A DNA stretch of 64,000 nucleotides from NCBI GenBank assembly GCA_017454015.1, contig JAFTDW010000006.1, positions 8,452 through 72,451 of the forward strand, written 5' to 3'. The DNA comes from Bacteroidales bacterium (GTDB lineage Bacteria; Bacteroidota; Bacteroidia; Bacteroidales; P3). Below the pieces are notes generated by a model. That model worked only from the letters and a program-made list of their open reading frames with translations, searched no databases and was not told where the DNA came from. A program made the position numbers and the translations under genes. Numbering within the stretch: the stretch's first letter is position 1; each line of letters starts with the position of its first letter. Positions 14,151-28,976 of this stretch are shown piece after piece.

Positions 14151-14864
14151 ATGCTTTTACTCCAATCCGATTTCGACAGCAGCATAGCTGCCGAGTTCCA
14201 GCAAGGCGACCACTCCATCGACATCCTTGGTGTCCCCGTGTTCGACGGCCCGGGTCTTTGGGAGATGCTGATACGCTTCGGCATCAACCTGCTTGTCTGC
14301 TGGATAATCACCCACTTCCTTTATTACCGCAAGAGCCGCCGTCGCGACTACTACTTCACCTACATGCTCTTCAGCACTGCCATCTTCTTCATACTCTACC
14401 AGCTGCAGAACATGAAGATAGAGGTCGGCATTGCCCTGGGTCTCTTTGGTATCTTCAGCATGATACGCTACCGCACCGAGCAGCTGCCAATACGTGAGAT
14501 GACCTACCTCTTCGTGCTCATAGCAATAAGCATCATCAACGGGGCCGGCCTCACTTCGAGCTACACGGCATTCATAGTCACCAATCTGCTCTTTGTGTTG
14601 ATCATCACCTTGCTTGAGCTCTTGGGCTTCAGCAGCCGGAAAGCCACCAAGATCATCACCTACGAGAAGATAGAACTCATCAAGCCCGACCGCCGCGACG
14701 AGCTCATGGCCGACCTCCGTGCCCGCACCGGCCTCGACATCACCAAGATACAGATAGGCTCCATCGACTTCCTAAAAGACACCGCCTTCCTTAAAGTCAC
14801 CTACATCAGCGACGACCCCGAGCCCAACGACATCGACATGATAACCAAGTTCAAGAAGAAGTAA
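14151..14864 (+). CDS. Polytopic membrane protein (DUF4956-like, usual partner of bacterial VTC-domain genes)
   Basis: Several hydrophobic helices followed by a soluble C-terminal domain, immediately downstream of the VTC gene. The family name is unverified. Confidence 0.5.
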   Translation: MLLLQSDFDSSIAAEFQQGDHSIDILGVPVFDGPGLWEMLIRFGINLLVCWIITHFLYYRKSRRRDYYFTYMLFSTAIFFILYQLQNMKIEVGIALGLFGIFSMIRYRTEQLPIREMTYLFVLIAISIINGAGLTSSYTAFIVTNLLFVLIITLLELLGFSSRKATKIITYEKIELIKPDRRDELMADLRARTGLDITKIQIGSIDFLKDTAFLKVTYISDDPEPNDIDMITKFKKK

Positions 14865-15673
14865 TGCTTCAGGGAGGTATCAAAATGGAATCTGATAATA
14901 ATACTATATCCTTTTTAGGTAAGACCGACATTGGTCTGCAACGAGCAAACAATGAAGATGCTTTTGTTGTGCAACGGCTTGATGACAGCGCCGTTCTTGC
15001 TGTTGTCATTGACGGTGTCGGTGGATACGAGGGTGGAGAGGTTGCTGCTGAGATAGCGCAGAATGAGATACGTAATTACATGAAAGAGTTTACCAGCGGA
15101 GAGAAAATGGAGTTGTTGAAACAGGCAGTTGTCTGTGCCAACAATGCCATATATGAGCGTCGTCGGTTCGATTTCGCACGGCAAAATATGGGCTGTGTTC
15201 TTACGGCTATAGTAGTTGACTCTGCATGTGAAGTTGTATACATGGCGCATGTTGGCGATACTCGCTTATATCAGTACCGTTATGGTGAACTCTGTAAACT
15301 CTCGCACGACCATTCTTTGGTTGGTCAACTTGAGGATAGCGGCGAGTTGACAGAGGAGCAAGCCATGAAACATCCCCGACGCAACGTAATAAGTCGAGTG
15401 ATAGGCTCGGAATACCATACTGTTGACGATTCGGATTTTATTGAAGCGAACCAGTTTCGGTTGTTGCCCAACTCAATATTTATGCTTTGTTCCGATGGGT
15501 TGACAGATTTAATAACGTCACATCAGATAGCCTCTATATTGGAACGGGATCTAACCCTTGACGAGAAAGTGCAAACGCTTGTCAATTCAGCCAACGAGGC
15601 AGGCGGTAAGGACAATACGACGGTCGTTTTGGTGCAATACAATACCAAGGTGACCTCTAAAAATAGCCTCTGA
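14864..15673 (+). CDS. PP2C-family Ser/Thr protein phosphatase
   Basis: Ordered PP2C motifs: RANNEDAF, IDGVGGYEGGEVAA, HVGDTRLY, LCSDGLTD, GGKDNTTVVLV. The start overlaps the upstream stop (TAATG). An alternative start is the ATG at 14885. Confidence 0.9.
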   Translation: MLQGGIKMESDNNTISFLGKTDIGLQRANNEDAFVVQRLDDSAVLAVVIDGVGGYEGGEVAAEIAQNEIRNYMKEFTSGEKMELLKQAVVCANNAIYERRRFDFARQNMGCVLTAIVVDSACEVVYMAHVGDTRLYQYRYGELCKLSHDHSLVGQLEDSGELTEEQAMKHPRRNVISRVIGSEYHTVDDSDFIEANQFRLLPNSIFMLCSDGLTDLITSHQIASILERDLTLDEKVQTLVNSANEAGGKDNTTVVLVQYNTKVTSKNSL

Positions 15674-15702
15674 GAGGCTAACTCTCAATTGCTTATGCCA
15701 TG

Positions 15703-15794
15703 AACTGAGGTCATGAGCACCTATGAAATAAAAACAAGGATAGCGAATAACTGAGGTCATGAGCACCTATGAAATGTAGACAAGGATAGCGAAT
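15703..15794. repeat. Tandem direct repeat, 2 x 46 bp
   Basis: Units 15703-15748 and 15749-15794 differ at 3 of 46 positions. Each begins with the hairpin catga-actgagg-tcatg. Confidence 0.85.
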
Positions 15795-15846
15795 AACGGG
15801 CATAATCAAAACAATGAATATTCAGAACCCGCTATAAAACTGTTGT

Positions 15847-16509
15847 ATGAAAACAAAATTGGAGCAAATCAGCAAGAACTCAGGAGTTGTCGCTGTCAAT
15901 GCGATAAAGTCGAACATTCTGTTAAAGCGGCTAATCAGAAGTAGTCTTGACATAGTATTGTTATGCGTTGTGCTGTGTCTTTGTTTCTCTTGCGGAACCT
16001 CTGTGGATAACAGTGGTGATAGTGTCGGGGATTTTGAGGATAGCGACTTGTCGGTCGTCGACTATCAGGTTCCAGATGGGTTGGAAGGTGAGTCCGACAG
16101 TGACACAGACTGTCCAATGGGTTGTTTTTTGAGCGAGGATTCCAACTATGTCTTGACATTGCAACGTTTGTCCAGTGACTCACCTGATAGTGCATACAGA
16201 GCCGTGATATATGACCGTGAAAGGTGGTATAAAGGGGAATGGATATGTGAACCGCTGTCGGTTCCTGCATATATTGGTTATGGTACGGTCTGCAGGTCGT
16301 CCTCTTTGTTGGAGTTCACATTCGACAATGGCTATATTGATTCTGATGGTATATGGCTACATCTAAGTTGCAGTGTTCCATGTGATTCTTTGATTATTGC
16401 TGCCGAAATACCTTTTTCGTATAGAGAGAAAGATGTTAATGTGCGTTTCAAGTCCTGTTCATGGGACAGTCTTAAACGATGGTGGCGCAACCCGATATGT
16501 GGAAACTGA
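15847..16509 (+). CDS. Acidic, Cys-rich putative lipoprotein (220 aa)
   Basis: Hydrophobic segment ending in the lipobox-like LCFSCG. AT-rich codon usage like the rest of the island. No motif recognised. Confidence 0.5.
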   Translation: MKTKLEQISKNSGVVAVNAIKSNILLKRLIRSSLDIVLLCVVLCLCFSCGTSVDNSGDSVGDFEDSDLSVVDYQVPDGLEGESDSDTDCPMGCFLSEDSNYVLTLQRLSSDSPDSAYRAVIYDRERWYKGEWICEPLSVPAYIGYGTVCRSSSLLEFTFDNGYIDSDGIWLHLSCSVPCDSLIIAAEIPFSYREKDVNVRFKSCSWDSLKRWWRNPICGN

Positions 16510-16618
16510 TATTTTTCCTACCATATAAAAAAAAAGTTGTAACTTTGTACGGATTAACATAAAATAGCATATATGGCGTAATACAGCAGAAACGTAATAA
16601 AATAAAGGACTAACCGCT

Positions 16619-16763
16619 CTTTATTCTCGCAGTAAGAATCTGGAAAATTCTAATGAATATGGGAATAAGTACGTGTGAGTTCACGCCTTGGGCGTGAGTT
16701 ATTCGCATTCTTATCTATATTCAGGGTATTCCAGAACCTTTACTGCAGATAAGGAGCATAAAG
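16619..16763 (+). other. Long imperfect palindrome (about 145 nt) in the leader of the vWA-like gene
   Basis: The centre is tcacgcc-ttg-ggcgtga at 16681-16697. Outer arms are ctttat...gcagtaa...tctggaa versus ttccaga...ttactgc...ataaag. Confidence 0.55.
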
Positions 16764-16815
16764 AATAATTCAGCGCCTTTTCTTTTTTTTGTCAAAATTC
16801 AAATAATTATCTGGT

Positions 16816-18303
16816 ATGAAAACACAAAGTTGCTTATGTCTGAAAAGACTCATGGTTTTCCTTATCGTAAACGCCATGCTGTTTATATCCTGTAGCAATG
16901 AACTGGATAAAACTATCCGTTCTGCTATAAGTGATGGTGTTATATCGAATGATGAATGGGAGAAGTTAAAAACTGAATCTCTCTCAACAGACCAATTCAT
17001 AGGTGAAGACGGTGGCATTGATACAGTAGAACTGAAAAACCATGTTGTGGAATATGCAAAAAGTCTGCGAGGTGTAGATAGTATTGTTTTTTCGAGTGAA
17101 GGAGAATCGGGATCCCCTATTTCTCCGATCTTGTTCAAATTTTTCCTTGAAAGAAGTGGTAGCATGATACCATACGATGCACCGAGTACAAATGGGTATT
17201 TTAAGATTGCTATAGCGGATTTGTTGTCTGCGGTGCCAAATAGTTGCGACGAAAACAACCTGATGTTTATTGTCAATAATAAGGTGACTCCTTTCCATAA
17301 AACATTCAAAGATTTTGTGCAGAGCTCTGATATAATGAAGGAGACAGATGGCTATGGAGATCCCAAATACACGGATTTCTCATGTATATTCGACTCTGTA
17401 TTGAACCGAACAAAAGATAACGAGGTAAGTATCCTTGTATCGGATATGATATACTCCGATAAGAACTATCAAAATAAGAGTCCGGAACGCATAACTGAGG
17501 AGGCCTCTCTTCTGACAAAAAAAATATTTCGTGGGCATGAGGATAAGGACATACTGATTATTAAGTTGAATTCTGGTTACAATGGTCAATATTATCCATA
17601 TAACAATCCCATTAAAGGAAACGTTTATCTTGGTAACCGACCGTATTATATGATGATAGTCGCTAAATCTGATGTTATGCATAGATTGTTCAATCTGCCC
17701 GAGTATAGTAGGTTCTGTGATTTTAAGCACCTAAAGGGATATGAAAACTATTATTGTTTTACCCGCCAGTCCGACAATCCCAAATATTCCATTCTGTTCA
17801 AGGGCAGTAGCCGTTTTAAGGCTGAGAAACAAAAAAAGACGGAGATACATAGTATCAAAAGACTTACTGCTGACCGCTCAGGGGAGACAAAATTAGTTGT
17901 TGCTGTTGACATGAGCTCCATTATTACAGAACCAGAATACTTGACAAATGTCCAAAACTATCAGGTCCAGTCAAAATCAGGCTTCGTTGTGTCTGATGTT
18001 AAAGCCATTGACAAGGCAGATATGCCTGGGGACATTTATCATTATGTTCCTACTGCGACACATCTGCTTGAACTGACGACAACAGAGGGAATAGTAAACG
18101 AAACAGTCAGTGTAAGTCTTATGAATAAGTTCCCTTTGTGGATAGAGAAATCATCAACAAACGACGACAGGAATACAAAAACACCAAGCTTTGCCAATAC
18201 TACCTTTGGCTTCAAAAGTATGATGTATGGAATATATGAAGCCATATACCCTACCATTAAGCCTCCTGTTTATTATGAACTGATACTGAATGTCAAAAAG
18301 TAA
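16816..18303 (+). CDS. vWA-like lipoprotein (495 aa)
   Basis: Lipobox (LFISCS). MIDAS-like ERSGSM at nt 17149-17166, with downstream T (YTDFSC) and SD (ILVSDMIY) at vWA-like spacing. Confidence 0.5.
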   Translation: MKTQSCLCLKRLMVFLIVNAMLFISCSNELDKTIRSAISDGVISNDEWEKLKTESLSTDQFIGEDGGIDTVELKNHVVEYAKSLRGVDSIVFSSEGESGSPISPILFKFFLERSGSMIPYDAPSTNGYFKIAIADLLSAVPNSCDENNLMFIVNNKVTPFHKTFKDFVQSSDIMKETDGYGDPKYTDFSCIFDSVLNRTKDNEVSILVSDMIYSDKNYQNKSPERITEEASLLTKKIFRGHEDKDILIIKLNSGYNGQYYPYNNPIKGNVYLGNRPYYMMIVAKSDVMHRLFNLPEYSRFCDFKHLKGYENYYCFTRQSDNPKYSILFKGSSRFKAEKQKKTEIHSIKRLTADRSGETKLVVAVDMSSIITEPEYLTNVQNYQVQSKSGFVVSDVKAIDKADMPGDIYHYVPTATHLLELTTTEGIVNETVSVSLMNKFPLWIEKSSTNDDRNTKTPSFANTTFGFKSMMYGIYEAIYPTIKPPVYYELILNVKK

Positions 18304-18336
18304 TAATTATTAATCTAAATTAAAAACTTAAATATC

Positions 18337-18795
18337 ATGAAAAATCCCAAGAATTCAAAAAAAACAGACTGGATATGGCTGATGGCAGGTCTTACAGTCA
18401 CTGCCTTGTTCTTGATTTTTAGTACAAGTGTCTATGAATTGTTATATTACGATGGGGAATTTTCCAATGAAATGTATAATAAAAATATGTATCTTGTTGT
18501 TGCTGGGTTAACCTCCCTTGTCGTATGGTCTACGGCTATTCTGTATTATTGGATCATTGATCATTTCGAAAGGTGGTATCATTGGTTGGTCGCCGTTGTA
18601 TTGGTGGTTGTACTATCTCCAGTTGTTGTGTTTTCACATTGTGCTGGCTACTTCTATGATAGCAACCTCGATGAACTTATATCGCCATTGGTTAATTTCA
18701 ATATCATTAATACAATAGTGGCGTTAGTGCTCTTTTTTATTGTTTGTCTCTCAGTAAAGCATCTTAGCCGCCATTGTTCATCAACCCCATTTTAA
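18337..18795 (+). CDS. Small membrane protein with four predicted TM helices (152 aa)
   Basis: Four hydrophobic stretches of about 20 aa (WIWLMAGLTVTALFLIF; LVVAGLTSLVVWSTAILYYWII; WLVAVVLVVVLSPVVVF; IINTIVALVLFFIVCLSV). Confidence 0.6.
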   Translation: MKNPKNSKKTDWIWLMAGLTVTALFLIFSTSVYELLYYDGEFSNEMYNKNMYLVVAGLTSLVVWSTAILYYWIIDHFERWYHWLVAVVLVVVLSPVVVFSHCAGYFYDSNLDELISPLVNFNIINTIVALVLFFIVCLSVKHLSRHCSSTPF

Positions 18796-18845
18796 TCAAT
18801 AGTGACATCAACGTTTTTAATAGCATAACTTAAAACATTAACAAT

Positions 18846-20435
18846 ATGAGATTATTTGTATTTGCAATAGGTGGCACAGGCTCGCGAGTACTCACCTCCT
18901 TGATAATGATGCTGGCAGCTGGTGCCAGACCTAAAGACAACAATGGAAGATCTATAAATAATTTGTCCATTGTCCCAATTATCATCGATCCGCACGAAAC
19001 CAACGATGCCCTAACTAAAGTTGAAGAACTTTTGAGAAGGTATCGTACCATGCACCGCAGAATCCACGGGGATAATCCAAACAATGAAGGCTATTTTGGC
19101 GTAAAAATAGAAACGCTCCAAGAAGTCGAGCCCCAACGCGTTAATAATGACACTTTCTTTTTCAAAATGACAAAAGTCAGTGAAAGTGCATTTAGTAAAT
19201 TCATCGACATAGAGACAATGGAACTAACTAATAAGCTTTTTGCCAAGATGCTATTTTCACAGGATGAATTAAACACAAAGATGGAAGAGGGCTTTTATGG
19301 TTCGCCAAATATCGGGTGCATTGCGTTAAACGAGTTCAGAAAGTCTCCTGACTTTAATGCTTTCAGAGCTGCTTATAGTGAAGGGGACAGGATTTTCTTC
19401 ATCGGTTCTATTTTTGGTGGTACTGGGGCGTCGGGTTTGCCACTATTCATTTCATCTATTCGAGAACTTGTCAATCTTGATAATGGCGACGGTGCCGCCG
19501 ATGGCAGGGTCAACTGTGCAGAAGCTCCTATCGGAGCTCTTATTGTCATGCCATATTTCAGTATTGCCAATAATAATGGTGGAGCAGCTGGCGGAACCCA
19601 AATAAGAGATAGCGAATTTATTGTGAAAACTAAATCTGCTTTGCGCTACTACCACTCCAATCTCAATAGATACATCAACAGGACATACTACATATCCGAC
19701 CCGAAGGGTACTGCAGGATTTACTTATGATCCAGGTGGAGAAGGGCAAAGAGAAAACAAAGCACACATTGTAGAATTTGCTGGTGCATTAGCCATGTTCG
19801 ATTTTCTTGCTATAAATGACGATGGTTTAAACGTCAATAATCCAGATGGCGGTGAAAGAATAACCGCAGTGGCGCCACTATATAAGAGTTATGGATTGAA
19901 CACAGATGATGCATATATTCATTTTGCTGGTTTGTCTAGACAAACCAACCGGGTGATATTGAATGCAATGATGGGTTTCTATATGTTAAGGCAATTTATG
20001 AAGAATCACATGGGGGATATGCTTACTAAACCCTTTGCAAATCAATACGATAAGAATCTTACAGAAGCCTTATATAGAGAAGATGAAATAACTGGGATAT
20101 TTAATATGTTTGACGAATGGATTAGTCAAATGAAGGCTCATGGCAATGGAGCTAACAATCTCCAACTGTATGGTGATTATAGCGCACAAGATAAGGATTT
20201 CTCTAACTTGTTCTTTGGCTCGCCAGAAACCAAAACATCACGTCTTTTGGGACTCAAAGGCTCTGTGAAAATAAATGATGTTGTAAAAGCTCTAAACGAG
20301 GCCGCAGAAATCATAGGCAATATGGATTCGCCTAATAATGGTGAGGTTGCGTATGCTAGGTGGTATAATGTCGCCTACAGGGCAATGAATAACATAATTG
20401 ACAATAAATTTGATATAACAACTCTAATACAATAA
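18846..20435 (+). CDS. Divergent tubulin/FtsZ-superfamily-like GTPase (529 aa)
   Basis: N-terminal AIGGTGSRV (GGTGS = nt 18870-18884) and FGGTGASG (nt 19416-19436) match the T1 loop and the [SAG]GGTG[SA]G T4 signature. Confidence 0.55.
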   Translation: MRLFVFAIGGTGSRVLTSLIMMLAAGARPKDNNGRSINNLSIVPIIIDPHETNDALTKVEELLRRYRTMHRRIHGDNPNNEGYFGVKIETLQEVEPQRVNNDTFFFKMTKVSESAFSKFIDIETMELTNKLFAKMLFSQDELNTKMEEGFYGSPNIGCIALNEFRKSPDFNAFRAAYSEGDRIFFIGSIFGGTGASGLPLFISSIRELVNLDNGDGAADGRVNCAEAPIGALIVMPYFSIANNNGGAAGGTQIRDSEFIVKTKSALRYYHSNLNRYINRTYYISDPKGTAGFTYDPGGEGQRENKAHIVEFAGALAMFDFLAINDDGLNVNNPDGGERITAVAPLYKSYGLNTDDAYIHFAGLSRQTNRVILNAMMGFYMLRQFMKNHMGDMLTKPFANQYDKNLTEALYREDEITGIFNMFDEWISQMKAHGNGANNLQLYGDYSAQDKDFSNLFFGSPETKTSRLLGLKGSVKINDVVKALNEAAEIIGNMDSPNNGEVAYARWYNVAYRAMNNIIDNKFDITTLIQ

Positions 20436-20442
20436 TCAAGTC

Positions 20443-23400
20443 ATGACAACACTAGAGTATCGTGAAAATGGCAATCCGGGATGGACTGCATGCAATGAAT
20501 ATACAGAACAACAGATAAATGCTATTCTAAACCCCAATAAGGTGGATTCCACAAAGATTTCTGTTCCATCGCCTTTTGCGCGGTTCGATTTGGTTCAGAA
20601 GGCTTTCTCTTGTCTGGCGGGAAATGCAAATGGATCTGAGCCCGACGACATAAAGCGTGTCTCCAATGCTCTCGATATGTATGAACTTTTTTATGAGAGT
20701 GCCGGTGGCGGGAACTTAAATATAGTAGAATGGCAAAAAAACGTAGCCATCGGCGAATTGCTTGACGGAAAATCCCTCCAGCATGAATTATATGGTGATG
20801 CCTTGAACCTATACATGGGTTTTGAGAATTATGGTTTCAGAGGAGATAATGTGGTAATTCACATAATTACTGATGAAAATGGGGATCCTATTGGCTGTAC
20901 ATCACCAACGTCAATGTTCTTGTCTGCCCCAGAATATGATTGTAAGCCGTTGGATAGGATAAGAATTGAGGGTGATAAGCCACTGTTTGGAGGTCCTCGC
21001 ATGTTGTGGGAACGTGACAATGACTTCATTCTGTACGTTTACCGGCAAGAGGCATATATGAGGGGTTGTGGAATCCAAATGGAAACACTACAGTCTTTCT
21101 TTACATACCTCGCAAGCCAGCGTGAAGTGATTAAGACTAAAAAGCTGGATATATACAGGATAATTAATAATCTTGTGTACGGCGAGAATGAAATGGAAGC
21201 GGATTATGAAAGAACAGATTGCTATGTTTTAGGTTGTGGGTTGTTCACCCGTAGAAGACAAAATGTTGCTGACAGGATTCGTAATACAAGTGACTTTACC
21301 ATACATTCAGACAAAACCAATAGTAGACCGTTGGTCTTGACCAATAGTAGCGCGGCTACATATAATGGTTGGAACTATCTTTCAGAAACTATCAGGTTCG
21401 ATAGCAACGAACATAAGATAAATTATCAGCAAATAAGATTAGATGAGACCCGTCATAAGTTGCCTGGTACAAATGTTGATTATGATGAAGGTTGGCTTTG
21501 TGAATGTGATTTTTTGTCTGATGTACTGGTTCAATTGCCATACCCCTTGGATTGTACCCATTTCTTCAATGGCAATATGGATACACCAATCAGACAGACT
21601 AAATATTATCTGCCACCAATCCGTTCAAAATATTTTGAGTTTTTCAATGTGGATACCCTTTATGATTCCCAAAATAGAAATGACAGAAATGGTAATGCAA
21701 AAAAACTAGAAATCAAAGAGGTTGAGAAAAATGGGAAACTCGAAAAGGTGGTGGTTAGTCTATTGATTCCTGTATCCCAAGGCCGCAGAATGGTTAAGCT
21801 TGTTAGAGAATATTTACCTGGTGAATTTGAATTAAACACAGCCGGTAGTCTCAGAAATGATTCTGCTGTGGGTCATATCGCCAAGTGTCCTATTGTTGTT
21901 AATATCTTTCCTTTTGTGCGTCTGGAAACCAACAATTATTACAAAATCCAGATGATTGATTTATTCAATAATGGAAAAGGTGTAATTGTAACGATGCATG
22001 CCGTTGGTAATGGTGAAATTGAATGGCAAAGTGAATATAATCGTTCAGCAAAAAATACTTATAAAACTTATTATTACGCTTTGAATGAGGCGTTTGACTA
22101 TTTGCGGCTAAAAATAACTAATGGCCAAGTTTGCCACGAATCCATTTTAATTCCTAAGTGGGAAGGTGCTGTTGATCAGGGGAATATTAGGTATAAGTTT
22201 GCATTTGACTTTGGTACAACCAACACCCATATCGCTGTCCGAAATATGGATAATGGTGAATTTATGGATTTCGCTATTGGGAGGTCTATGGTGTCAACAT
22301 TCAACCAAAACCAGGCAAGGAGGAATGTTTATAATCAGGAAGAACAGAAGAATTTTGATTTTTTTGAAATATTGCAGAAACAAGAATTCGTTCCTAATGA
22401 AATAGCAAATGGGGCTATATGCAAGTTCCCAATCAGGACTGTGGCTATGCGTAATAGAAACCTTGAAATAGATGGAACTGTACCAGAGGCCTTGGTGCAT
22501 GTAAATATTCCTTTTATATATGGTATAGAAGACTATGGCACTCAAGAGAATTTTCTTGTACCGAATCTGAAATGGGCAAGAGAAGATGCTGCCAATAAGT
22601 TATCCAGCGCGTTCATTGAGGAGTTGGTTGTTTTGGCAAGGATTTTTGCTTTAGAGCATGATGGCAATTTGGCTGCGTGTTCATTTGTGTGGACGTATCC
22701 ATTAAGCATGGTTTCGGGAGTAGTCAATAGGTTTAATGAAAAATGGCAAAGATATTTTGGGAAATATTTCTTGGGTAAGGAAAGAGCAGTCCCAAATAAT
22801 TGTGTGAAGAAAATGTCGGAATCTATAGCCCCAGTTTTCTACTACATGGATGATGGAGAGACATTAGAGAATATGACCTTGTCAATAGATATAGGTGGGG
22901 GAACATGTGATGTTGTCATAAAAAATGGTGACAAGATTAGTTTTACATCGTTCCAATTCGCGGCTGATGTAATCTTTGGTGCAGGGAAAGTCGGCAATAA
23001 CCCGATGATAAAAAAACACTATCATTCTGGAGACTTAAAAGGTATCTGTGAAAAGAAAATGCCAGAGGAGGCGTATAATTCCATTTTAGCAGATGATAGT
23101 GATTCCTCAGAAGCAAATTCATTTTTGTTCGGCCTTGAGAGCAATCCGCGGCTTGCAAACGAACCACTCGAGAGAAAGTCGTACAATGCAAAACTTAATG
23201 GTGATAATTATCGCAAAGTTATTTTCCTCTATTTTTATGCGTCGATTATTTATTATTTGACTAAGTTATTACAGGACTACAGATATCCGCAACCATGCAC
23301 TTTTATGTTTAGTGGCACGGGATCAAAAATACTGAGCATTATTGGGAATAATGATAATATAAGAAAATATACCACTGATTTGTTGAACTTGTTTTCAGAA

Positions 23401-23946
23401 GGAGAGTTCAAGTATACTCGTAATATAGATATCTTGATAGAGAGCGAAGAACCTAAGCAAATCACCGCAAAAGGTGCTCTCCATGAAGTGGCCGCTGATG
23501 ATAAACAAGACCCCGCAACTTTCTTTGCGGATCCTGATAATGTTGAAAGAGCGACTATTCACTACTCGTTGTACTATAATGAAGATAAGGATGGTGGGCC
23601 TATTCCATTGAATAATAAAGATTTGAAAAATGATGATCTTTTGAAAAATGTTTGCGAAAAAGTCAAAGCCTTCAATGAGGTGTTTTTAAATTGTATCAAT
23701 AATTTGAGCTTTGAAGATAAATATCTTTGCGATAAAAAAGGTATAAGTAAAATGTCTGAAATCCTCCGAGCTGAAAATGACAGGTTGCTTGACTATATGA
23801 AAACAGAAATAGAAAAAGAAGATAGAGTCATAATTCAAACTGATCCCCAAAGTATGTTTAAGGGGGCACTCTTCTTCTATCCAATAAAACAATTAATACA
23901 GCGCACAATAATGCCTAATTTTAATGAAGACCTTGCAGAAAATTAA
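20443..23946 (+). CDS. 1167-aa protein: unrecognised N-terminal half plus C-terminal Hsp70/actin-fold (ASKHA) ATPase-like domain
   Basis: Phosphate-1 AFDFGTTNTHIAV (nt 22201-22239), phosphate-2 LSIDIGGGTCDVVI (nt 22879-22920) and adenosine-like FMFSGTGSKIL (nt 23302-23334) occur in canonical order and spacing. Confidence 0.7.
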   Translation: MTTLEYRENGNPGWTACNEYTEQQINAILNPNKVDSTKISVPSPFARFDLVQKAFSCLAGNANGSEPDDIKRVSNALDMYELFYESAGGGNLNIVEWQKNVAIGELLDGKSLQHELYGDALNLYMGFENYGFRGDNVVIHIITDENGDPIGCTSPTSMFLSAPEYDCKPLDRIRIEGDKPLFGGPRMLWERDNDFILYVYRQEAYMRGCGIQMETLQSFFTYLASQREVIKTKKLDIYRIINNLVYGENEMEADYERTDCYVLGCGLFTRRRQNVADRIRNTSDFTIHSDKTNSRPLVLTNSSAATYNGWNYLSETIRFDSNEHKINYQQIRLDETRHKLPGTNVDYDEGWLCECDFLSDVLVQLPYPLDCTHFFNGNMDTPIRQTKYYLPPIRSKYFEFFNVDTLYDSQNRNDRNGNAKKLEIKEVEKNGKLEKVVVSLLIPVSQGRRMVKLVREYLPGEFELNTAGSLRNDSAVGHIAKCPIVVNIFPFVRLETNNYYKIQMIDLFNNGKGVIVTMHAVGNGEIEWQSEYNRSAKNTYKTYYYALNEAFDYLRLKITNGQVCHESILIPKWEGAVDQGNIRYKFAFDFGTTNTHIAVRNMDNGEFMDFAIGRSMVSTFNQNQARRNVYNQEEQKNFDFFEILQKQEFVPNEIANGAICKFPIRTVAMRNRNLEIDGTVPEALVHVNIPFIYGIEDYGTQENFLVPNLKWAREDAANKLSSAFIEELVVLARIFALEHDGNLAACSFVWTYPLSMVSGVVNRFNEKWQRYFGKYFLGKERAVPNNCVKKMSESIAPVFYYMDDGETLENMTLSIDIGGGTCDVVIKNGDKISFTSFQFAADVIFGAGKVGNNPMIKKHYHSGDLKGICEKKMPEEAYNSILADDSDSSEANSFLFGLESNPRLANEPLERKSYNAKLNGDNYRKVIFLYFYASIIYYLTKLLQDYRYPQPCTFMFSGTGSKILSIIGNNDNIRKYTTDLLNLFSEGEFKYTRNIDILIESEEPKQITAKGALHEVAADDKQDPATFFADPDNVERATIHYSLYYNEDKDGGPIPLNNKDLKNDDLLKNVCEKVKAFNEVFLNCINNLSFEDKYLCDKKGISKMSEILRAENDRLLDYMKTEIEKEDRVIIQTDPQSMFKGALFFYPIKQLIQRTIMPNFNEDLAEN

Positions 23947-24016
23947 GAGCCGTTTGAAGCAGAAAATGCAAGATTTGTCAAGTTATAAGATGTGTCATTA
24001 ATAAACCACAAAGATA

Positions 24017-24814
24017 ATGAAAAGAATAGTTGTTTTATTGCTGGCTGCATTTTTGGTAAACATCAATGTTTGTTGCAAGGATTTGCACAGACCATCCTCG
24101 CGCAATGTGGATAGCGTGCAAGCCGTTGAAACAGATAGTTCAAACGATCATCCCTCCCAAGATAGAGACAATAAAAATAAGAATAAGAGTTTCCCCAATT
24201 TGTCCTTTATAACTGCAATACTGGCTTTGGCGTTTTCCATATATCTCTTTTCGGAACTTAATAAATTGAAAAATGACGTACAGGCAAAGTTTAAACGTAG
24301 AAAAGAGGCTCATGTCTTATTGGAAAATAAAATGTCGAAATTTGAGAACGATTTGGAAAAGAATAGGGGCGTGATTACCGAGCTTAAGCGGCAAATGGCC
24401 GAAAGCGTCAGCCATATTAAAGAAAGCCAGAGCAATACGGTTTCGGAAAACAGTCACATGGATATTCCTCAGCCATCGGATAGTGTAAATAAAAAACAGG
24501 AAAAAAGACCAAGTGAGCTATATTGTGGGGCACCCGTCTCCAGCTGTTTTGAAGTCTCTGAAAGTTACTATCCAGGAGCACTGTATAAAATTGTAGTAAA
24601 TGGTAGTGGTACTGGAGATTTTGAGTTTGTTGATAGCATTGAAGCACTGGAGTGTGCGCAGATGTCTAGAACATCGTTTCTTGAGCCAGCTTGCAATGTT
24701 ATTAACAATGATATAGCGCGCTTTGACCACATATATACAGAGCGCAATGGAAAAGTTAAGAAAACTAACGATGGATGGGTGATTGTTGAGAAAGCTGTTG
24801 TACGCCTCGTATAA
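24017..24814 (+). CDS. Membrane protein with signal/TM segments, a coiled-coil stretch and a Cys-containing C-terminal domain (265 aa)
   Basis: N-terminal hydrophobic segment, a second TM (FITAILALAFSIYLF), then a heptad-like KLKNDVQAKFKRRKEAHVLLENKMSKFENDLEKNRGVITELKRQM. Confidence 0.5.
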   Translation: MKRIVVLLLAAFLVNINVCCKDLHRPSSRNVDSVQAVETDSSNDHPSQDRDNKNKNKSFPNLSFITAILALAFSIYLFSELNKLKNDVQAKFKRRKEAHVLLENKMSKFENDLEKNRGVITELKRQMAESVSHIKESQSNTVSENSHMDIPQPSDSVNKKQEKRPSELYCGAPVSSCFEVSESYYPGALYKIVVNGSGTGDFEFVDSIEALECAQMSRTSFLEPACNVINNDIARFDHIYTERNGKVKKTNDGWVIVEKAVVRLV

Positions 24815-24863
24815 TAAATCTGTACCAGAGGAGTAAGTTGATTTTAGTCAAATGGAATGATAC

Positions 24864-26018
24864 ATGAAACAAACTTGTAGAAATTGCAAGACTGTTATTG
24901 AGATAGACGAAAGCGAGCACAAAGAGGGCGAAACTGTTTTGGTGAAGTGTTCAGTATGTGGTACAATGACTGAATTTAACATACCAGTGTCGCAACCGGA
25001 TGATTCGAAAAAGTCTGATAACAATGGTATGGCTGTTATTGTATCGGAAGGGGTGCCTATTGCGCCGAATGGTAAAGACAAGAAAAATGATAACGGCAAG
25101 CAAAAGAAGGGTTCAGTTGAAACAAAGGTGAATGATAAGAGCCATAAGCCTGAAGTAAAAGAACAGAGTGCAGATTCTGCCATGTCAGGGAAAGGTGGCT
25201 GGACTCTGGGAGAAGGAAAGAACTCAGGCCACGTTCCCCCGCGCCCCCCCACCCCAAAAAATTTTTTGATAGTGTCAATTGTTATTACTGGTTTAGCACT
25301 TATTGTGGGAGGTTTCTTTCTCTACAAAAACGTATTCCTTCCCCGGAAGATTGATGCAGAGGCTCCAAGATATTATACTATAGCAGAACCATACCTTGCA
25401 CTACGTTCCACCCCATCTGCGGGAGGAGTTTACAATAAAGTTGACGAACTCTATTATGGCACGGAACTAATAACATATGATGTCGACTCAAAATGGTTGA
25501 AAGTCAAAACGGAAAAGACTTTTGACAAAAAGGAACAAAAAAGTGGTTACGTTGCTGCTGAACATGCTTTAAGCAAGCGTGATTTTTTCATTTTAAACAG
25601 CATCTGGGGCGATTATGAAAGTAAAAAAGTGATCGAGACAACAAAATGCAGAAAGGCAATTCTAAACTATTATAATAAGAACGGCTATATTGGTTCAATA
25701 TCCAAAGAAGAATTGGAGGCAGCTGAAATAGGAATAACCCCCAGCCCGGCAAATCAATGGCAGATTTTTAGCAAGAGTCCTAAGTCCCCCAACAACACCA
25801 CATATTTTAAAAGGCTGATAAATCCCAATTCAAAATTCACTGATTTCGCTGTCATTATACAAAACATTAATACAGGGAGAAGAAAACTTCTTTATTTCTA
25901 CTTTCTGGATGACGAGACGCCTGTTCTGTATCGTGACATATATGCGCCCAGAACTGGCTATATCAAACAAATAAAGCTTTTACCTAATCAAGAACTCTCT
26001 GTCGAATATACACCATGA
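24864..26018 (+). CDS. Zn-ribbon / Lys-rich linker / single TM / SH3b-like domain protein (384 aa)
   Basis: CRNC...(19 aa)...CSVC at nt 24879-24968, TM FLIVSIVITGLALIVGGFFLY, and an SH3b-like ALRSTPS...GTELITYDVDSKWLKVKT...GYVAAEH. Confidence 0.55.
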   Translation: MKQTCRNCKTVIEIDESEHKEGETVLVKCSVCGTMTEFNIPVSQPDDSKKSDNNGMAVIVSEGVPIAPNGKDKKNDNGKQKKGSVETKVNDKSHKPEVKEQSADSAMSGKGGWTLGEGKNSGHVPPRPPTPKNFLIVSIVITGLALIVGGFFLYKNVFLPRKIDAEAPRYYTIAEPYLALRSTPSAGGVYNKVDELYYGTELITYDVDSKWLKVKTEKTFDKKEQKSGYVAAEHALSKRDFFILNSIWGDYESKKVIETTKCRKAILNYYNKNGYIGSISKEELEAAEIGITPSPANQWQIFSKSPKSPNNTTYFKRLINPNSKFTDFAVIIQNINTGRRKLLYFYFLDDETPVLYRDIYAPRTGYIKQIKLLPNQELSVEYTP

Positions 26019-26590
26019 GCAAGAGAATTATAAGAATTGGCCTGTTTGTATTTTTTTTCATGGTTGTTGTTGCGCCGTATGTTGGTCTATATTATGTTGC
26101 AGGTTGGTACAAAAACAAACTGAAAACAGTGGAACGAGCATCTGTAGTGATTGTTAATAAAGAGACAATGACATTGTCTGTTATTGACTATAGGGGTGTA
26201 GAGAAGTCGCGATACCAGATGGCATGTGGGCAGAATTATGGAAACAAAAAAGCAATCGGCGACAAGAGGACTCCAGAAGGGGTGTTCCACGTTGACGGTA
26301 TACGTGATGCGTCAACTTGGACACATGACTTTAAAGATGGCAATGGAGAAATTCAGGGGGCATATGGTCCATGGTTTATTCGTTTGGATACACCTGGTTT
26401 TAATGGCATAGGCATACATGGCACCCATCAGCCAGAGTCCATCGGTAATAGAGCTACAGAAGGCTGTATAAGATTGAAAAACGAAGATGTCAGCGCCCTT
26501 AAAGAGATTGTTTATATAGGCATGCCTGTTATAATTATTCCTTCAACACATGATGCTGTTGCAATGTTAGATAAAAATGAATGCAATTAA
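26015..26590 (+). CDS. L,D-transpeptidase (YkuD-domain) protein with N-terminal membrane anchor
   Basis: Catalytic motif GIHGTHQPESIGNRATEGCIRL at nt 26411-26476. There is a 4-nt overlap with the upstream gene. Confidence 0.85.
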   Translation: MSKRIIRIGLFVFFFMVVVAPYVGLYYVAGWYKNKLKTVERASVVIVNKETMTLSVIDYRGVEKSRYQMACGQNYGNKKAIGDKRTPEGVFHVDGIRDASTWTHDFKDGNGEIQGAYGPWFIRLDTPGFNGIGIHGTHQPESIGNRATEGCIRLKNEDVSALKEIVYIGMPVIIIPSTHDAVAMLDKNECN

Positions 26591-27206: not shown

Positions 27207-27224
27207 ACAAACACTTTATAGAAT

Positions 27225-28235: not shown

Positions 28236-28510
28236 CCTATAGTCTGTCATTGGATTTTGATTCTAATATATGTATTGTTGGTGTTTATGCACATCATGTG
28301 TGCGGACGGGATGTCCTGTGCAACATACTTAGTATTCGTTTTGGTTCCAGCGCATTAGGAAAAGGTAGGACACGGCGTAGGTAGCGGCTTCTTTGGTCGA
28401 CGCCTCTTCTAGTGAATAGGTGGTGTAATGGGCTTTCTGCAATGGGCGTATGTTTTTTGCTGTAATTATCGAAAAACAATTATTTGGTTTAACATAATTG
28501 GATATCTTTA

Positions 28511-28807: not shown

Positions 28808-28976
28808 TGAAAATGAATACTAAATTCTTTACCTAATTATTCTGGAATGCCCTGCAAGGGCATAAATCCAACAGCCCAGGGCACCGCCCTGGGTATAAAC
28901 GGCATCAAAATATATGCGCCCTGTAAGGGCAAAATCAATTTTAGGTATAACATTTAGCAGTCATTTAATGAAAAAT
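28805..28976. repeat. MITE/REP-like intergenic element, copy B, at the right edge of the AT-rich island
   Basis: Aligns end to end with 6193-6367, with a handful of substitutions and one 1-nt indel. Same orientation. Confidence 0.75.

Follow-up and report, generated by a model that had tools for sequence, protein, structure and literature searches.

We identified a divergent tubulin-superfamily protein that is encoded together with a giant Hsp70-like protein in a gene set found in hundreds of gut Bacteroidales and in cyanobacteria. Our data leave next to no doubt that the 529-aa product is a member of the tubulin superfamily, and just as little that its gene belongs to a conserved multi-gene system that includes the Hsp70-like partner. 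The best overall explanation, which we hold to be slightly more probable than not, is that the core genes encode an envelope complex in which the tubulin-like GTPase works with the Hsp70-like ATPase. All coordinates (Table 1) refer to the window, the whole 64-kb stretch of DNA that was analysed.

Table 1. Features of the gene set and its surroundings (positions in the window).
Feature	Position (nt)	Strand	Remarks
Low-GC island with the entire gene set	14864..29118	.	GC about 0.39, against 0.553 in the remaining window
PP2C-type Ser/Thr phosphatase, accessory	14864..15673	+	NCBIfam Stp1/IreP PP2C, E 3.5e-63; Pfam PP2C_2
220-aa island-specific protein	15847..16509	+	one N-terminal hydrophobic segment; no family match; missing from related loci
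Core gene 1, 495-aa lipoprotein with MIDAS-like (vWA-like) motif set	16816..18303	+	signal peptide and invariant lipobox Cys26
ERSGS of core gene 1	17149-17163		T186 and D210 further on
Core gene 2, 152-aa membrane protein	18337..18795	+	four predicted TM helices (four hydrophobic segments)
Core gene 3, tubulin/FtsZ-superfamily GTPase	18846..20435	+	AF2 model, Foldseek, hhalign; no TM segment
T1 loop GGTGS (aa 9-13)	18870..18884	+	after strand S1 (aa 2-8), opening helix H1 (aa 9-24) in the AF2 model
T3-like loop GFYGSPNIG (aa 149-157)	19290..19316	+	G149, F150, G152, P154, G157 invariant
T4 signature loop GGTGASG (aa 191-197)	19416..19436	+	between S4 (aa 182-188) and H4 (aa 194-209) in the AF2 model
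T5-like PYF (aa 236-238)	19551..19559	+	directly after strand S5; invariant in 63/63
H7-like core helix region QRENKAHIVEFAG (aa 301-313)	19746..19784	+	invariant Q301, N304, H307, E310
Core gene 4, 1167-aa cytoplasmic partner	20443..23946	+	~570-aa N-terminal part, Hsp70/actin-fold ATPase domain, helical C-terminus
Hsp70/actin-fold ATPase domain (about aa 580-1020)	22180-23502		
ATPase 'phosphate 1' motif DFGTTNT (aa 589-595)	22207..22227	+	D589, G591, N594 invariant; T592 nearly so
ATPase 'phosphate 2' motif DIGGGTCD (aa 816-823)	22888..22911	+	D816 through T821 and D823 invariant
Putative 'adenosine'-type motif FSGTGSK (aa 956-962)	23308..23328	+	G958, S961 invariant; F956, S957, T959, G960, K962 nearly so
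Fifth gene, bitopic protein	24017..24814	+	signal peptide, one TM helix, coiled-coil-like stretch, conserved ~95-aa C-terminal domain
'Zinc ribbon - TM - variable domain' protein	24864..26018	+	MJ0042-type zinc ribbon (nt 24876-24962), one TM (aa 135-153), SH3_3-like domain
Three island-specific envelope genes	26015..28235	+	each with an N-terminal hydrophobic segment; not conserved in related loci
YkuD L,D-transpeptidase-like protein	26015-26590	+	Pfam YkuD, E 1e-17
209-aa island-specific protein	26577-27206	+	N-terminal hydrophobic segment
336-aa island-specific protein	27225-28235	+	N-terminal hydrophobic segment

Fold and nucleotide-binding loops of the tubulin-like protein

The tubulin-like ORF is open, starts with ATG and encodes a 529-aa protein that is currently annotated as "hypothetical" and scores below every Pfam threshold; it is cytoplasmic and has no TM segment. 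The original prediction, which took the gene for a highly divergent tubulin/FtsZ-like GTPase, was borne out by an AF2 model of the protein (pLDDT 88.8, pTM 0.91). Tubulin and CetZ make up all of the best 50 Foldseek matches of this model in the PDB (probability 0.96-1.00, E from 1e-4, 300-360 aligned columns), with no Rossmann or GT-B enzyme among them, and the top structural match in BFVD is a phage tubulin. Large inserts and a non-canonical C-terminal half keep the TM-scores to tubulin low (0.22-0.38).

Sequence comparisons place the protein near the edge of detectable similarity. The query reaches 16.2 bits against the Pfam Tubulin family PF00091 (cut-off 33, E 0.013), and the best of seven further members scanned singly reaches 22.3 bits, also below 33. 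PF13809 (Tubulin_2) does not match the query at E up to 0.1; it gives sub-threshold matches in 11 of 63 homologues, and the best of seven Bacteroidales members scanned singly scores 26.3 bits against a threshold of 27. Sub-threshold matches to both Pfam families recur through the family, whose members span 269-528 aa among the best 150 representatives. A PDB sequence search with the 529-aa protein alone found no match, and the sole PDB match of the family profile is CetZ, at the T4 loop. By tblastn, the query finds a Gloeothece 'tubulin-like' protein (E 8e-11). Gloeothece verrucosa WP_013325769 passes PF13809 (40.8 bits versus 27), and hhalign aligns the family profile with it at a probability of 99.6% (E 8.7e-25, aa 2-323, 285 columns). 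Taken together, the Foldseek matches to tubulin and CetZ and the hhalign match to a PF13809 protein identify a tubulin/FtsZ-superfamily GTPase on a sister branch of FtsZl1/Tubulin_2.

The Bacteroidota family of ~500-aa proteins is the sister branch of ~500-aa cyanobacterial 'Tubulin_2' (PF13809, FtsZ-like 1 group) proteins. It is not an orphan family, but homologous to the Pfam Tubulin_2/FtsZl1 group of 2010, and for the 529-aa protein itself we consider homology to Tubulin_2 highly probable. The sub-threshold Pfam Tubulin match and the empty single-protein PDB search would also suit a Rossmann-type enzyme or glycosyltransferase whose glycine-rich loops are coincidental, a reading to which we give virtually no weight in view of the uniformly tubulin-family structural matches, the hhalign alignment to a Tubulin_2 member and the CetZ match at the T4 loop. 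A Rossmann/GT-B enzyme with chance glycine loops was rejected at the level of fold prediction.

Both glycine-rich loops named in the original prediction, GGTGS and GGTGASG, are present, and the tetrapeptide GGTG occurs just twice across the six frames of the window, each time inside this ORF. We scored loop conservation in an alignment of 63 homologues with 36-58% identity to the query. The T1 residues G9, G10 and G12 are kept in 62 of the 63, and the T4 residues G191, G192, T193, G194, A195 and G197, along with P199, in every one; such near-invariance reflects selection rather than chance. The T4 loop aligns with those of CetZ 3ZID and of FtsZ. The proposed superfamily signature [SAG]GGTG[SA]G held in part: the GGTG loop is present and invariant, but the strict PROSITE-type pattern has no match in the whole window, as the family loop reads F-GGTG-A-[AS]-G, with F before GGTG and one residue more than the signature. 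The spacing of ~180 aa between T1 and T4, described as longer than in FtsZ, is real and due to family-specific inserts, which in the model separate helix H2 from loop T3 (about aa 75-145). Inserts between loops were also noted for FtsZl1/FtsZl2 (Makarova & Koonin, 2010).

Further elements of the nucleotide site can be traced along the protein. Within the T3-like loop, hhalign sets GSPNIG opposite ANPEVG of E. coli FtsZ, a low-probability alignment (E 0.049). PYF may correspond to T5, judging by its position in the model and by analogy with 'PF-FEG' of FtsZ. Strictly invariant residues near the predicted pocket comprise D285 and D295 in addition to the four in the H7-like region, which is the last part that can be aligned with the cyanobacterial Tubulin_2 protein; that alignment ends at aa 323. 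The first ~320 residues carry the tubulin/FtsZ GTPase fold, with nucleotide-binding loops T1, T3 and T4 intact. Beyond them, the stretch where T7 is expected (aa 322-345) varies in length and sequence. The original prediction had proposed looking there for an acidic residue, and none is conserved: neither the family alignment nor the secondary structure of the model reveals an acidic T7 'synergy' motif, and D334, which comes closest, is replaced by a residue other than D or E in all but 67% of homologues. DSSP assigns aa 365-529 of the model mostly to helices, with a few strands of one to three residues.

The missing T7 conservation, and a C-terminal half that in the model is mostly helical, unlike the FtsZ/tubulin activation domain, could also indicate a tubulin-fold scaffold or pseudo-enzyme that binds GTP or GDP constitutively or not at all, neither hydrolyses nor polymerises and serves solely to keep the complex together, a doubt also voiced for FtsZl1 by Makarova & Koonin. 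However, T1, T3, T4 and the pocket residues are strictly invariant at 36-58% identity, the pattern of purifying selection on a working nucleotide site, and we regard a pseudo-enzyme as improbable.

A conserved gene set with an Hsp70-like partner

The next ORF begins 7 nt downstream of the tubulin-like gene, and the suggestion that it encodes a partner is well supported by its genomic context. We collected 84 related loci, 80 of them complete, from at least 570 species genomes. The downstream gene is adjacent to and co-oriented with the tubulin-like gene in 83 of the 84, the single exception being cut by a contig end, and it is the downstream neighbour in cyanobacteria as well, where the 1118-aa protein is homologous to the 1167-aa protein (BLASTP E 4e-8). 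The order lipoprotein, 4-TM protein, tubulin-like GTPase, Hsp70-like giant is found in 80 of 80 loci uncut by contig ends.

No Pfam family matches the 1167-aa protein, which has no TM segment and whose family in Bacteroidales measures 1100-1200 aa, the catalytic motifs of the ATPase domain being intact. Its AF2 model (pLDDT 83.8) matches the nucleotide-binding domains of MreB, DnaK and BiP in Foldseek (E 2e-6, probability 1.0), and the family profile matches the nucleotide-binding domain of Hsc70 (E 9e-6), with DIGGGTCD aligned to DLGGGTFD. PDB sequence matches of the profile are confined to this domain, and the region past aa 1020 is helical in the model. By analogy, FSGTGSK is a candidate for the 'adenosine' motif. 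Members of the DnaJ and GrpE families were not found among the island proteins.

The lipoprotein gene is present in 81 of 84 loci, the missing cases being contig ends. E112, S114, S116, T186 and D210 are invariant in 40 homologues, and the protein is homologous to a cyanobacterial 465-aa lipoprotein with a canonical DGSGSM (hhalign 93%, E 3.4e-7). Pfam and PDB sequence searches with the lipoprotein found no vWA match, and in hhalign comparisons with an integrin I domain nothing beyond the MIDAS loop (E 0.056) or the 'TD' strand (E 0.0011) could be aligned; we call the protein vWA-like by its motif set. The gene for the 152-aa TM protein occupies the same position in 82 of 84 loci, and the matching position in cyanobacteria holds a 156-aa protein without detectable sequence similarity. 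For three of the four core proteins, homology extends across phyla.

Two gene types follow the core. By clustering, 69 of 78 loci have a member of the bitopic-protein family at the +1 position; a simple C-terminal motif of this protein is present in the +1 gene at 47 loci but in none of 335 control neighbours, and F, A, C, G and W are invariant in the C-terminal alignment. In 58 of 78 loci, the core is followed by one to three proteins with CxxC...CxxC in their N-terminal part. These variable membrane proteins have in common an N-terminal zinc ribbon on the cytoplasmic side, and zinc-ribbon families predominate in a census of downstream genes. The zinc-ribbon protein in the window matches TIGR02098, and both Pfam Zn_ribbon_4 and SH3_3 below threshold.

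GC content confirmed that the gene set lies in an accessory island in this window: GC is 0.37-0.45 in the genes between 14864 and about 29118, versus 0.53-0.62 in flanking genes, with an abrupt jump at the GH20 gene. Across 59 other loci the median difference between module and flank is +0.009. The island is a peculiarity of this genome and of loci L005 and L006, its nearest relatives; elsewhere the module is usually compositionally native. We infer that horizontal transfer brought the gene set into this genome. No tRNA was found in the window, no integrase domain in the proteins scanned and no replication or partition gene in the island. PADLOC returned no defence protein and no credible match. 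No island protein matches a P-loop family, and no Walker A motif is conserved among them, the single match, in the 1167-aa protein, not being conserved. The PP2C gene has no homologue in the 84 related loci; locus L003 has a Ser/Thr kinase upstream in its place. Accessory genes here and in other loci encode envelope-type domains (SH3, YkuD, TM2, CarboxypepD_reg).

A proposed envelope-spanning machine

The core combines two NTPases without TM segments, a lipoprotein with signal peptide and lipobox, and a small protein with four TM segments. We propose that the MIDAS lipoprotein would form the extracytoplasmic binding end of an envelope-spanning complex and that the membrane proteins would act as connectors across the envelope. 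On the cytoplasmic face, the tubulin-like protein would bind GTP and act as a GTP-dependent assembly or switch module, together with the Hsp70-like ATPase. That the complex is an envelope-spanning machine with two NTPases is, in our estimate, an even call.

Because the T7 loop is not conserved and the canonical C-terminal domain appears not to be retained, FtsZ-type head-to-tail polymerisation is probably not what drives GTP hydrolysis; the apparent absence of a conserved acidic T7 motif from the family alignment likewise speaks against polymerisation-coupled hydrolysis of that type. Control of hydrolysis by the Hsp70-like partner, or a slow rate, is more likely. The most likely role would be to organise or remodel the inner membrane or cell envelope, and not cell division. 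The non-division part of the original prediction is suggested by gene context and by the canonical FtsZ that Bacteroides has in the tree of Makarova & Koonin (2010), who argued likewise for FtsZl1. A role in envelope remodelling rather than immunity is a tentative assignment, to which we give somewhat less than an even chance.

A more specific proposal, which we put forward as a possibility on the unlikely side, is that the four-gene core is a distinct, so far undescribed envelope-spanning machine in which a tubulin-superfamily GTPase is coupled directly with an Hsp70/actin-superfamily ATPase, and in which the latter protein (or its N-terminal half) replaces the missing T7 loop as regulator of GTP hydrolysis. 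If true, this would be a new joint use of two classical cytoskeletal folds, common to gut Bacteroidales and cyanobacteria.

Comparison with known systems

In common with FtsZ, tubulin and CetZ, the tubulin-like protein has the GTPase-domain fold, glycine loops at T1 and T4, a T3-like GxxGxPxxG and, following S6, a core helix. It differs from them in about 100 additional residues between H2 and T3, in a T4 loop one residue longer, in the absence of an NxDxxD/E T7 motif, and in a C-terminal half that is helical in the model rather than an α/β activation domain (S7-H9-S8-H10-S9-S10); its gene also lies outside the division gene cluster. The 1167-aa protein resembles Hsp70, MreB and actin (ASKHA) in its fold and in its phosphate-1, phosphate-2 and putative adenosine motifs, and its profile covers Hsc70 INEPTAA...DLGGGTFD, whereas the ~570-aa N-terminal extension sets it apart. 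Hsp70 chaperones proper have a C-terminal β-sandwich substrate-binding domain, a helical lid, and J-protein and GrpE co-chaperones. In the 1167-aa protein, by contrast, there is no profile match to the substrate-binding domain and the C-terminus is helical in the model, and no J-domain or GrpE gene lies near its gene.

TubZ of plasmids and PhuZ of phages are, like the protein described here, non-division tubulin folds encoded with dedicated partners. A cytomotive DNA-segregation tubulin of this kind, which would polymerise to move a mobile element's DNA and have a DNA-binding adaptor encoded nearby, would be consistent with a tubulin fold outside the division cluster and a phage tubulin at the top of the BFVD matches, with a homologue in Gloeothece on a 47.5-kb plasmid, and with the FtsK-gamma winged-helix (DNA-binding) domain that 7 of 148 downstream neighbour proteins carry. 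We nonetheless consider it very improbable. A tblastn search of 50,697 phage records found no match, and only three plasmid records matched, one of them a 1.77-Mb replicon; most copies are on long chromosomal contigs. No TubR-like gene and no centromere-like repeat array adjoins the tubulin-like gene. What it invariably has beside it are genes for envelope proteins and for an Hsp70-like ATPase, in an island devoid of replication or partition genes.

The gene set also resembles the NTP-dependent conflict (immune) systems described by Kaur, Burroughs, Iyer & Aravind (2020, eLife), in which constant regulators (vWA proteins, GTPases, tubulin and HSP70 homologues) determine the threshold at which variable components are deployed. 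In such a system, the MIDAS lipoprotein would serve to detect an invader at the envelope, the two NTPases would drive multimeric assembly, and the zinc-ribbon membrane proteins would be sensors or effectors. The theme matches the GAP1-N2 'DO-GTPase' systems, with their tubulin-domain, vWA and HSP70-NBD-only proteins, zinc ribbons, membrane components, kinases or PP2C, and variable partners. The variable zinc-ribbon array downstream, the PP2C here and the kinase in L003, the low-GC islands of this genome, L005 and L006, the Gloeothece plasmid copy, and a patchy spread over Bacteroidota, Cyanobacteria and one Chitinispirillia MAG that suggests transfer are all in keeping with this reading. Yet the constant core in Kaur et al. 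(2020) is one or two TRAFAC-clade P-loop 'DO-GTPases' and a GAP1 protein. The island contains no P-loop DO-GTPase and no conserved Walker A; GAP1 was not found either, in searches of libraries that hold no GAP1 model. Tubulin and HSP70 form an invariant pair here but belong to distinct themes in the systems of Kaur et al., who limit the tubulin-containing version to Firmicutes and Actinobacteria. Neither a nuclease, TIR or caspase domain nor any other recognised effector was found, PADLOC gave no credible match, the variable domains are of envelope type (SH3, TM2, CarboxypepD_reg), and in most genomes the GC of the module equals that of its flanks. We place an immune function on the unlikely side, and an envelope complex of the two NTPases remains our preferred reading.

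Among described families, FtsZl1/Tubulin_2 (PF13809) likewise has a divergent tubulin/FtsZ GTPase domain with big inserts separating T1 from T4, shows neither a T7 loop nor a canonical C-terminal domain that can be recognised, and occurs beside a normal FtsZ. FtsZl1 operons encode vWA-type proteins and membrane proteins, in some cases also kinases and a DnaK-like giant (Magnetospirillum amb2961); the operon neighbour here is a lipoprotein with an invariant ExSxS...T...D motif set (DxSxS in cyanobacteria), its putative vWA fold being suggested by this motif set. The FtsZl1 proteins listed in neighbourhood tables of Makarova & Koonin (2010) have lengths of 909-1393 aa, and the protein is described as having an FtsZ-like domain at the N terminus, a long coiled coil and a helical C-terminal domain. 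The same source lists a 913-aa FtsZl1 of Bacteroides caccae in a different context, in a list that does not include Prevotella. The protein described here, in contrast, has 529 aa and no extended coiled coil in its model, and its gene has an Hsp70-fold giant as invariant partner and neither a P-loop GTPase nor an OmpA protein in the core.

The cyanobacterial ~500-aa 'tubulin-like domain-containing proteins' (e.g. WP_013325769) are the nearest relatives that we identified beyond Bacteroidota. Unlike the Bacteroidales proteins, they pass the Pfam threshold, and some records call them 'tubulin-like'. The lipoprotein gene of the cyanobacterial set (Gloeothece, Richelia, Chondrocystis) is divergently transcribed and encodes a canonical DxSxS in place of the ExSxS of Bacteroidales, and the C-terminal halves and small TM proteins do not align between the two groups. 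The proteins themselves, however, are of equal length and homologous over the N-terminal 320 aa (27% identity), and the genes next to theirs correspond as well, encoding a MIDAS lipoprotein, a 4-TM protein of ~156 aa and an Hsp70-like protein of ~1100 aa.

Fold and anatomy of the tubulin-like protein

The ORF at 18846-20435 (+) is intact and encodes 529 residues, and both glycine-rich loops of the original prediction, GGTGS and GGTGASG, lie within it. GGTG occurs twice in the six-frame translation of the window, both times inside this ORF. Among 63 homologues that are 36-58% identical to the query, G9, G10 and G12 are kept in 62, and G191, G192, T193, G194, A195, G197 and P199 are kept in all 63. 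The superfamily signature had been given as [SAG]GGTG[SA]G; the GGTG loops are near-invariant, but the strict pattern is not matched, as a phenylalanine precedes GGTG and the loop is one residue longer. The unusual distance of ~180 residues between the two loops is real and arises, in an AlphaFold2 model, from inserts between H2 and the T3-like loop; such inserts have already been remarked for FtsZ-like families (Makarova and Koonin, 2010).

The protein is annotated as a 'hypothetical protein' of a Bacteroidales MAG. Its Pfam Tubulin match (E 0.013, 16.2 bits) is below the 33-bit cut-off, scans of NCBIfam and PADLOC gave no match, and a PDB search with the single 529-aa sequence gave none at E up to 10. 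With the family profile, the sole PDB match was CetZ (3ZID, E 0.5). An hhalign comparison of the family with the E. coli FtsZ sequence aligned T3-S4-T4 correctly at low probability and serves as illustration only. The AlphaFold2 model, built from 63 sequences, has a pLDDT of 88.8 and a pTM of 0.91. When it was run through Foldseek against the PDB, as the original prediction had proposed, the best 50 matches were tubulins and CetZ only (probability 0.96-1.00, E from 1.4e-4, 300-360 aligned columns). TM-scores against the PDB matches are low (0.22-0.38), owing to the inserts and to a C-terminal half that is not canonical. Among viral models, a phage tubulin ranks first. Since the best 50 matches are all tubulin or CetZ, a Rossmann or GT-B fold with coincidental glycine-rich loops is excluded at the level of structure prediction.

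Because the nucleotide-loop residues are conserved, GTP binding is a well-supported prediction. We searched the alignment at residues 322-345 for the acidic residue of T7 and found none conserved in this segment, which varies in length and sequence; at D334, in the region of the T7 position, 67% of sequences carry D or E. Hydrolysis of the FtsZ type, activated by the next subunit of a filament, is not supported by these sequences. The last ~200 residues are mostly helical in the model and gave no alignment with the cyanobacterial homologue.

Features of the tubulin-like protein (residue numbers), the window (nucleotides) and related loci in other genomes (L-numbers; L085, L087 and L088 are cyanobacterial)
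Feature	Position	Strand	Detail
S1	aa 2-8		model
T1	aa 9-13 (nt 18870-18884)		GGTGS
H1	aa 9-24		model
S2	aa 41-47		then invariant D48-P49
Long H2	aa 54-74		model
Insert	aa ~75-145		specific to family
T3-like loop	aa 149-157		GFYGSPNIG, 5 invariant positions
S4	aa 182-188		model
T4	aa 191-197 (nt 19416-19436)		GGTGASG
H4	aa 194-209		model
S5	aa 229-234		then invariant P236-Y237-F238
H5	aa 255-272		model
S6	aa 279-283		then invariant D285
H7-like segment	aa ~295-321		invariant D295, G297, Q301, N304, H307, E310
Native-GC run directly upstream of island	9975-14864	+	four genes
Cthe_2159-like gene	9975-11669	+
DUF2490 gene	11729-12562	+
VTC domain gene	13120-13947	+
DUF4956 gene	14151-14864	+
~95-nt intergenic repeat element	14018-14106, 28848-28937		three short hairpins: TGCCCTGnAAGGGCA, GCCCAnnGGCAnCGCCnTGGG, TGCGCCCTGTAAGGGCA
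+1 family member of window	24017-24814
Zinc-ribbon protein of window	24864-26018		SH3-like domain
Cyanobacterial +1 proteins	L085:12947-14194, L087:13852-14730, L088:13918-14850
Notable variable downstream genes, example loci	L053:12088-12717, L039:14134-14670, L003:15948-16520

A conserved gene set and a giant partner protein

A word-indexed search with the tubulin-like protein returned 1494 hits, and an exhaustive search 2090 clusters at 50% identity; among the matches listed, nearly all are full-length, at ~450-530 aa. Taking one genome per GTDB species, we found at least 570 that encode a relative; almost all of these are Bacteroidales (Prevotella, Muribaculaceae, Sodaliphilus, Phocaeicola), and cultured carriers include Prevotella koreensis, P. 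phocaeensis and Leyella lascolaii. A relative was also found in a Cytophagaceae MAG.

We compared every island protein with 84 loci by tblastn. Of these, 81 have a match to the 495-aa protein, 82 to the 152-aa protein, 84 to the tubulin-like protein and 83 to the 1167-aa protein; order and single-strand orientation are the same across these loci, and the four incomplete ones all end at contig edges. The gene that starts 7 nt downstream had been proposed to encode the partner of the tubulin-like protein. It co-occurs with the tubulin-like gene in 83 of the 84 loci, always in the same order. The PP2C, 220-aa, 209-aa and 336-aa island proteins have a match in no other locus, and the YkuD protein in one.

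A Pfam scan of the 1167-aa partner, encoded at 20443-23946, found no family. Three motifs, DFGTTNT (residues 589-595), DIGGGTCD (816-823) and FSGTGSK (956-962), are invariant or nearly so in 42 homologues, and a fold search with an AlphaFold2 model (pLDDT 83.8) finds MreB together with the DnaK and BiP nucleotide-binding domains (E 2e-6, probability 1.0). The family profile also matches Hsc70 (E 9e-6) across INEPTAA...DLGGGTFD. Together, the ATPase motifs, model matches and profile match identify the partner as a predicted Hsp70/actin-fold ATPase with a ~570-aa N-terminal extension. In the model, this extension comprises an α/β part followed by a β-rich part at residues ~420-570, and the C-terminus is helical; a search for an Hsp70 substrate-binding domain in the partner detected none. 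Invariant residues of the partner include R47, D78 and R191. A distant homologue is encoded in a Chitinispirillia MAG.

Other readings of the partner were set aside. A degenerate second tubulin domain in its N-terminal half was rejected after hhalign showed no similarity to the tubulin-like protein. Weak matches to a methyltransferase and DpdK (PADLOC, NCBIfam) are far under any cut-off and were disregarded, and a Walker A match, GELLDGKS, is a chance match that is not conserved.

The 495-aa protein has a signal peptide and an invariant lipobox cysteine. Its E112-x-S114-x-S116, T186 and D210 are invariant with MIDAS-like spacing. No significant match to a vWA fold came from Pfam searches (40 members, trimmed domains and consensus, E up to 10), from searching the PDB with a profile or from an hhalign comparison with an integrin I domain, and we term the lipoprotein 'vWA-like by motif'. 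Four hydrophobic helices are predicted in the 152-aa protein and none in either NTPase.

In 69 of 78 loci, the first gene after the core (+1) belongs to a single family, whose members carry a signal peptide, a single TM helix and a coiled-coil-like stretch, and end in a conserved domain of ~95 aa. After it, 58 of the 78 loci encode between one and three proteins that begin with a CxxC...CxxC zinc ribbon and usually have a TM helix; the rest of each protein is variable. Zinc-ribbon families predominate in a Pfam census of 148 downstream proteins, with FtsK-gamma, retropepsin-like, TM2 and other domains occasional. Seven of the 148 are tail-anchored proteins that join an N-terminal zinc ribbon to an FtsK-gamma winged-helix domain; a membrane-anchored DNA-binding domain is odd in this context. 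Five are retropepsin-like aspartyl proteases, and a TM2-domain protein also occurs. Upstream of the core in a Muribaculaceae locus (L003:5509-6801) lies a Ser/Thr protein kinase where the window has a PP2C phosphatase, along with further zinc-ribbon proteins. This kinase and phosphatase hint at phosphorylation control of the system; kinases are often found in FtsZl1 operons (Makarova and Koonin, 2010).

Genomic setting

The accessory island of the original prediction is evident in base composition: per-gene GC is 0.37-0.45 from 14864 to ~29118, versus 0.53-0.62 in flanking genes, and the low-GC stretch ends abruptly at a GH20 gene. At its upstream end, the DUF4956 stop codon and the PP2C start codon overlap by one base. 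We found no tRNA in the window and no integrase domain in the proteins scanned. Across 59 loci with enough flank, the median difference between module and flank GC is +0.009, and only seven modules lie more than 3 points under their flanks, among them L005 and L006, which are closest to the query. In most genomes the core set is therefore a chromosomal locus of native composition, and the window's lineage was probably transferred into higher-GC Bacteroidales genomes.

Two copies of a ~95-nt element, 14.8 kb apart, enclose the DUF4956 gene and the island. We rejected these direct repeats as an att site: because their 23-nt core has a third copy at 6305-6327, 8 kb upstream, the element is not specific to the island but a hairpin repeat dispersed among intergenic regions. 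It looks like a dispersed REP/MITE-like repeat, which could have acted as a recombination or insertion point. Elsewhere in the window, a 46-nt unit is tandemly duplicated in perfect register (15703-15794, 93% identical) between the PP2C and 220-aa genes. A cobalamin riboswitch at 40898-41106 (+) (Rfam RF00174, 80.3 bits, E 3.7e-18), unrelated to the core, directly precedes a 667-aa ORF (41217-43220).

A segregation role of the TubZ or PhuZ type is unlikely: phage records hold no relative of the tubulin-like protein, and plasmid records hold three, one on a 1.77-Mb replicon. This replicon, NC_022111.1 of Prevotella sp. oral taxon 299 str. F0039, is classed as a plasmid by PLSDB and carries a full-length tubulin-like gene at 33.6% identity; its gene table has one feature, and none under the match. 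Five of the related loci (L014, L031, L057, L066 and L076) hold a typical Bacteroidales-type module at 34-40% identity and in identical gene order. They are filed as Agathobacter rectalis, Wujia chipingensis, Paratractidigestivibacter sp., Eggerthellaceae and Flexilinea sp., in bins assigned to Firmicutes, Actinobacteria or Chloroflexi within a single 'cleanbin' series, and are most likely mis-binned contigs, not true occurrences.

Relation to known systems and proposed role

Sub-threshold Pfam matches among the 63 homologues are to Tubulin_2 (PF13809) in 11 and Tubulin in five; the best individually scanned reach 26.3 of 27 bits and 22.3 of 33 bits, respectively, both under threshold. Among plasmid records, tblastn picked out a 511-aa Gloeothece verrucosa protein on plasmid Cy782204, recorded as 'tubulin-like doman-containing protein' (27% identity, residues 3-321, E 8e-11). 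At 40.8 bits it is a bona fide member of PF13809, and hhalign aligns it with the Bacteroidales family profile at 99.6% probability (E 8.7e-25, residues 2-323). This ~500-aa form is widespread in cyanobacteria (2028 hits, nearly all with PF13809). Given this homology, and since PF13809 corresponds to the 'FtsZ-like' group (Makarova and Koonin, 2010), we assign the tubulin-like protein by sequence to FtsZl1/Tubulin_2, as a short-form and divergent relative.

Gloeothece, Richelia sinica and Chondrocystis share the gene arrangement of the Bacteroidales core, with the lipoprotein gene on the divergent strand: a 465-466-aa protein, a 156-aa protein, the ~500-aa Tubulin_2 protein and a 1082-1118-aa protein, then two more genes, whose Gloeothece products have weak coiled-coil-type Pfam matches. 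The large protein and the window's partner are homologues (BLASTP E 4e-8, residues 584-1011). Homology also links the Bacteroidales 495-aa family to the 465-aa protein (hhalign 93%, E 3.4e-7), a lipoprotein that carries a canonical DGSGSM motif, a 'VTDL' strand and RPFY. The small TM proteins agree in size and position, with no detectable sequence similarity. Cyanobacterial +1 proteins combine an N-terminal CxxC...CxxC zinc ribbon with a C-terminal C...W-L-x-x-KG-L-x-F pattern, which the Bacteroidales +1 C-terminus resembles (C...W-x-I-x-x-KA-x-I); a profile comparison of the Bacteroidales domain with these proteins was not significant (E 0.27).

The core pairs a tubulin fold with an Hsp70/actin fold in the models; both NTPases keep intact nucleotide-site motifs, and their genes are strictly linked across two phyla. 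The predicted topology places the lipoprotein outside, the membrane proteins in the membrane and the NTPases inside. We propose that the gene products may form one envelope-spanning complex, in which the tubulin-like protein would lie at the cytoplasmic face and act there as an assembly or switch element that depends on GTP. It would be remodeled or regulated by the Hsp70-like ATPase, which may also provide the missing hydrolysis-activating element, and the zinc ribbons conserved among the variable proteins could be docking modules.

We favor a role in envelope or membrane organization, since the accessory genes encode envelope proteins, a search of the island proteins recognized no effector or defense domain, and most loci look native. 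An envelope or membrane role was also proposed for FtsZl1 (Makarova and Koonin, 2010). The chief alternative is an NTP-dependent conflict system as defined by Kaur et al (2020), who describe themes of tubulin, HSP70, vWA, zinc ribbons, kinases and PP2C; the defining core of such systems, DO-GTPase and GAP1, was not found among the island proteins.

If the role is membrane or vesicle remodeling, the system matters for how major gut commensals build and maintain their envelope; if it is immunity, the system would be a new class of defense system. Either way, hundreds of 'hypothetical proteins' could be annotated. To our knowledge, tubulin-fold proteins beyond division and DNA segregation are almost unexplored. 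What a tubulin-type GTPase and an Hsp70/actin-type ATPase do jointly at a bacterial membrane is a testable question, as cultured Prevotella and Leyella strains carry the set, which is also widespread in cyanobacteria, a group with model strains amenable to genetics.

Already known were the assignment to the superfamily, the fact that FtsZ-like/Tubulin_2 proteins exist, and the Pfam domain of the cyanobacterial orthologues. FtsZl1 has been known from sequence since 2010, and we found no experimental characterization of FtsZl1/Tubulin_2, nor any description of the Bacteroidales system in the literature searched. In the 2010 account, FtsZl1 proteins are 909-1393 aa in the neighborhood tables consulted, compared with 529 aa here, and are described with a coiled coil and a helical C-terminal domain; the corresponding list has no Prevotella, and its Bacteroides caccae FtsZl1 (913 aa) lies in a different gene context. 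Relative to the literature searched, what is new is the Bacteroidales branch, whose members score below threshold and are annotated as hypothetical, along with its short architecture, its invariant association with an Hsp70-fold giant, and a fixed four- to five-gene core common to Bacteroidales and cyanobacteria. This defines a compact short form of FtsZl1/Tubulin_2, with an invariant partner and a fixed set of envelope proteins, in which the old question of FtsZl1 function becomes experimentally approachable.
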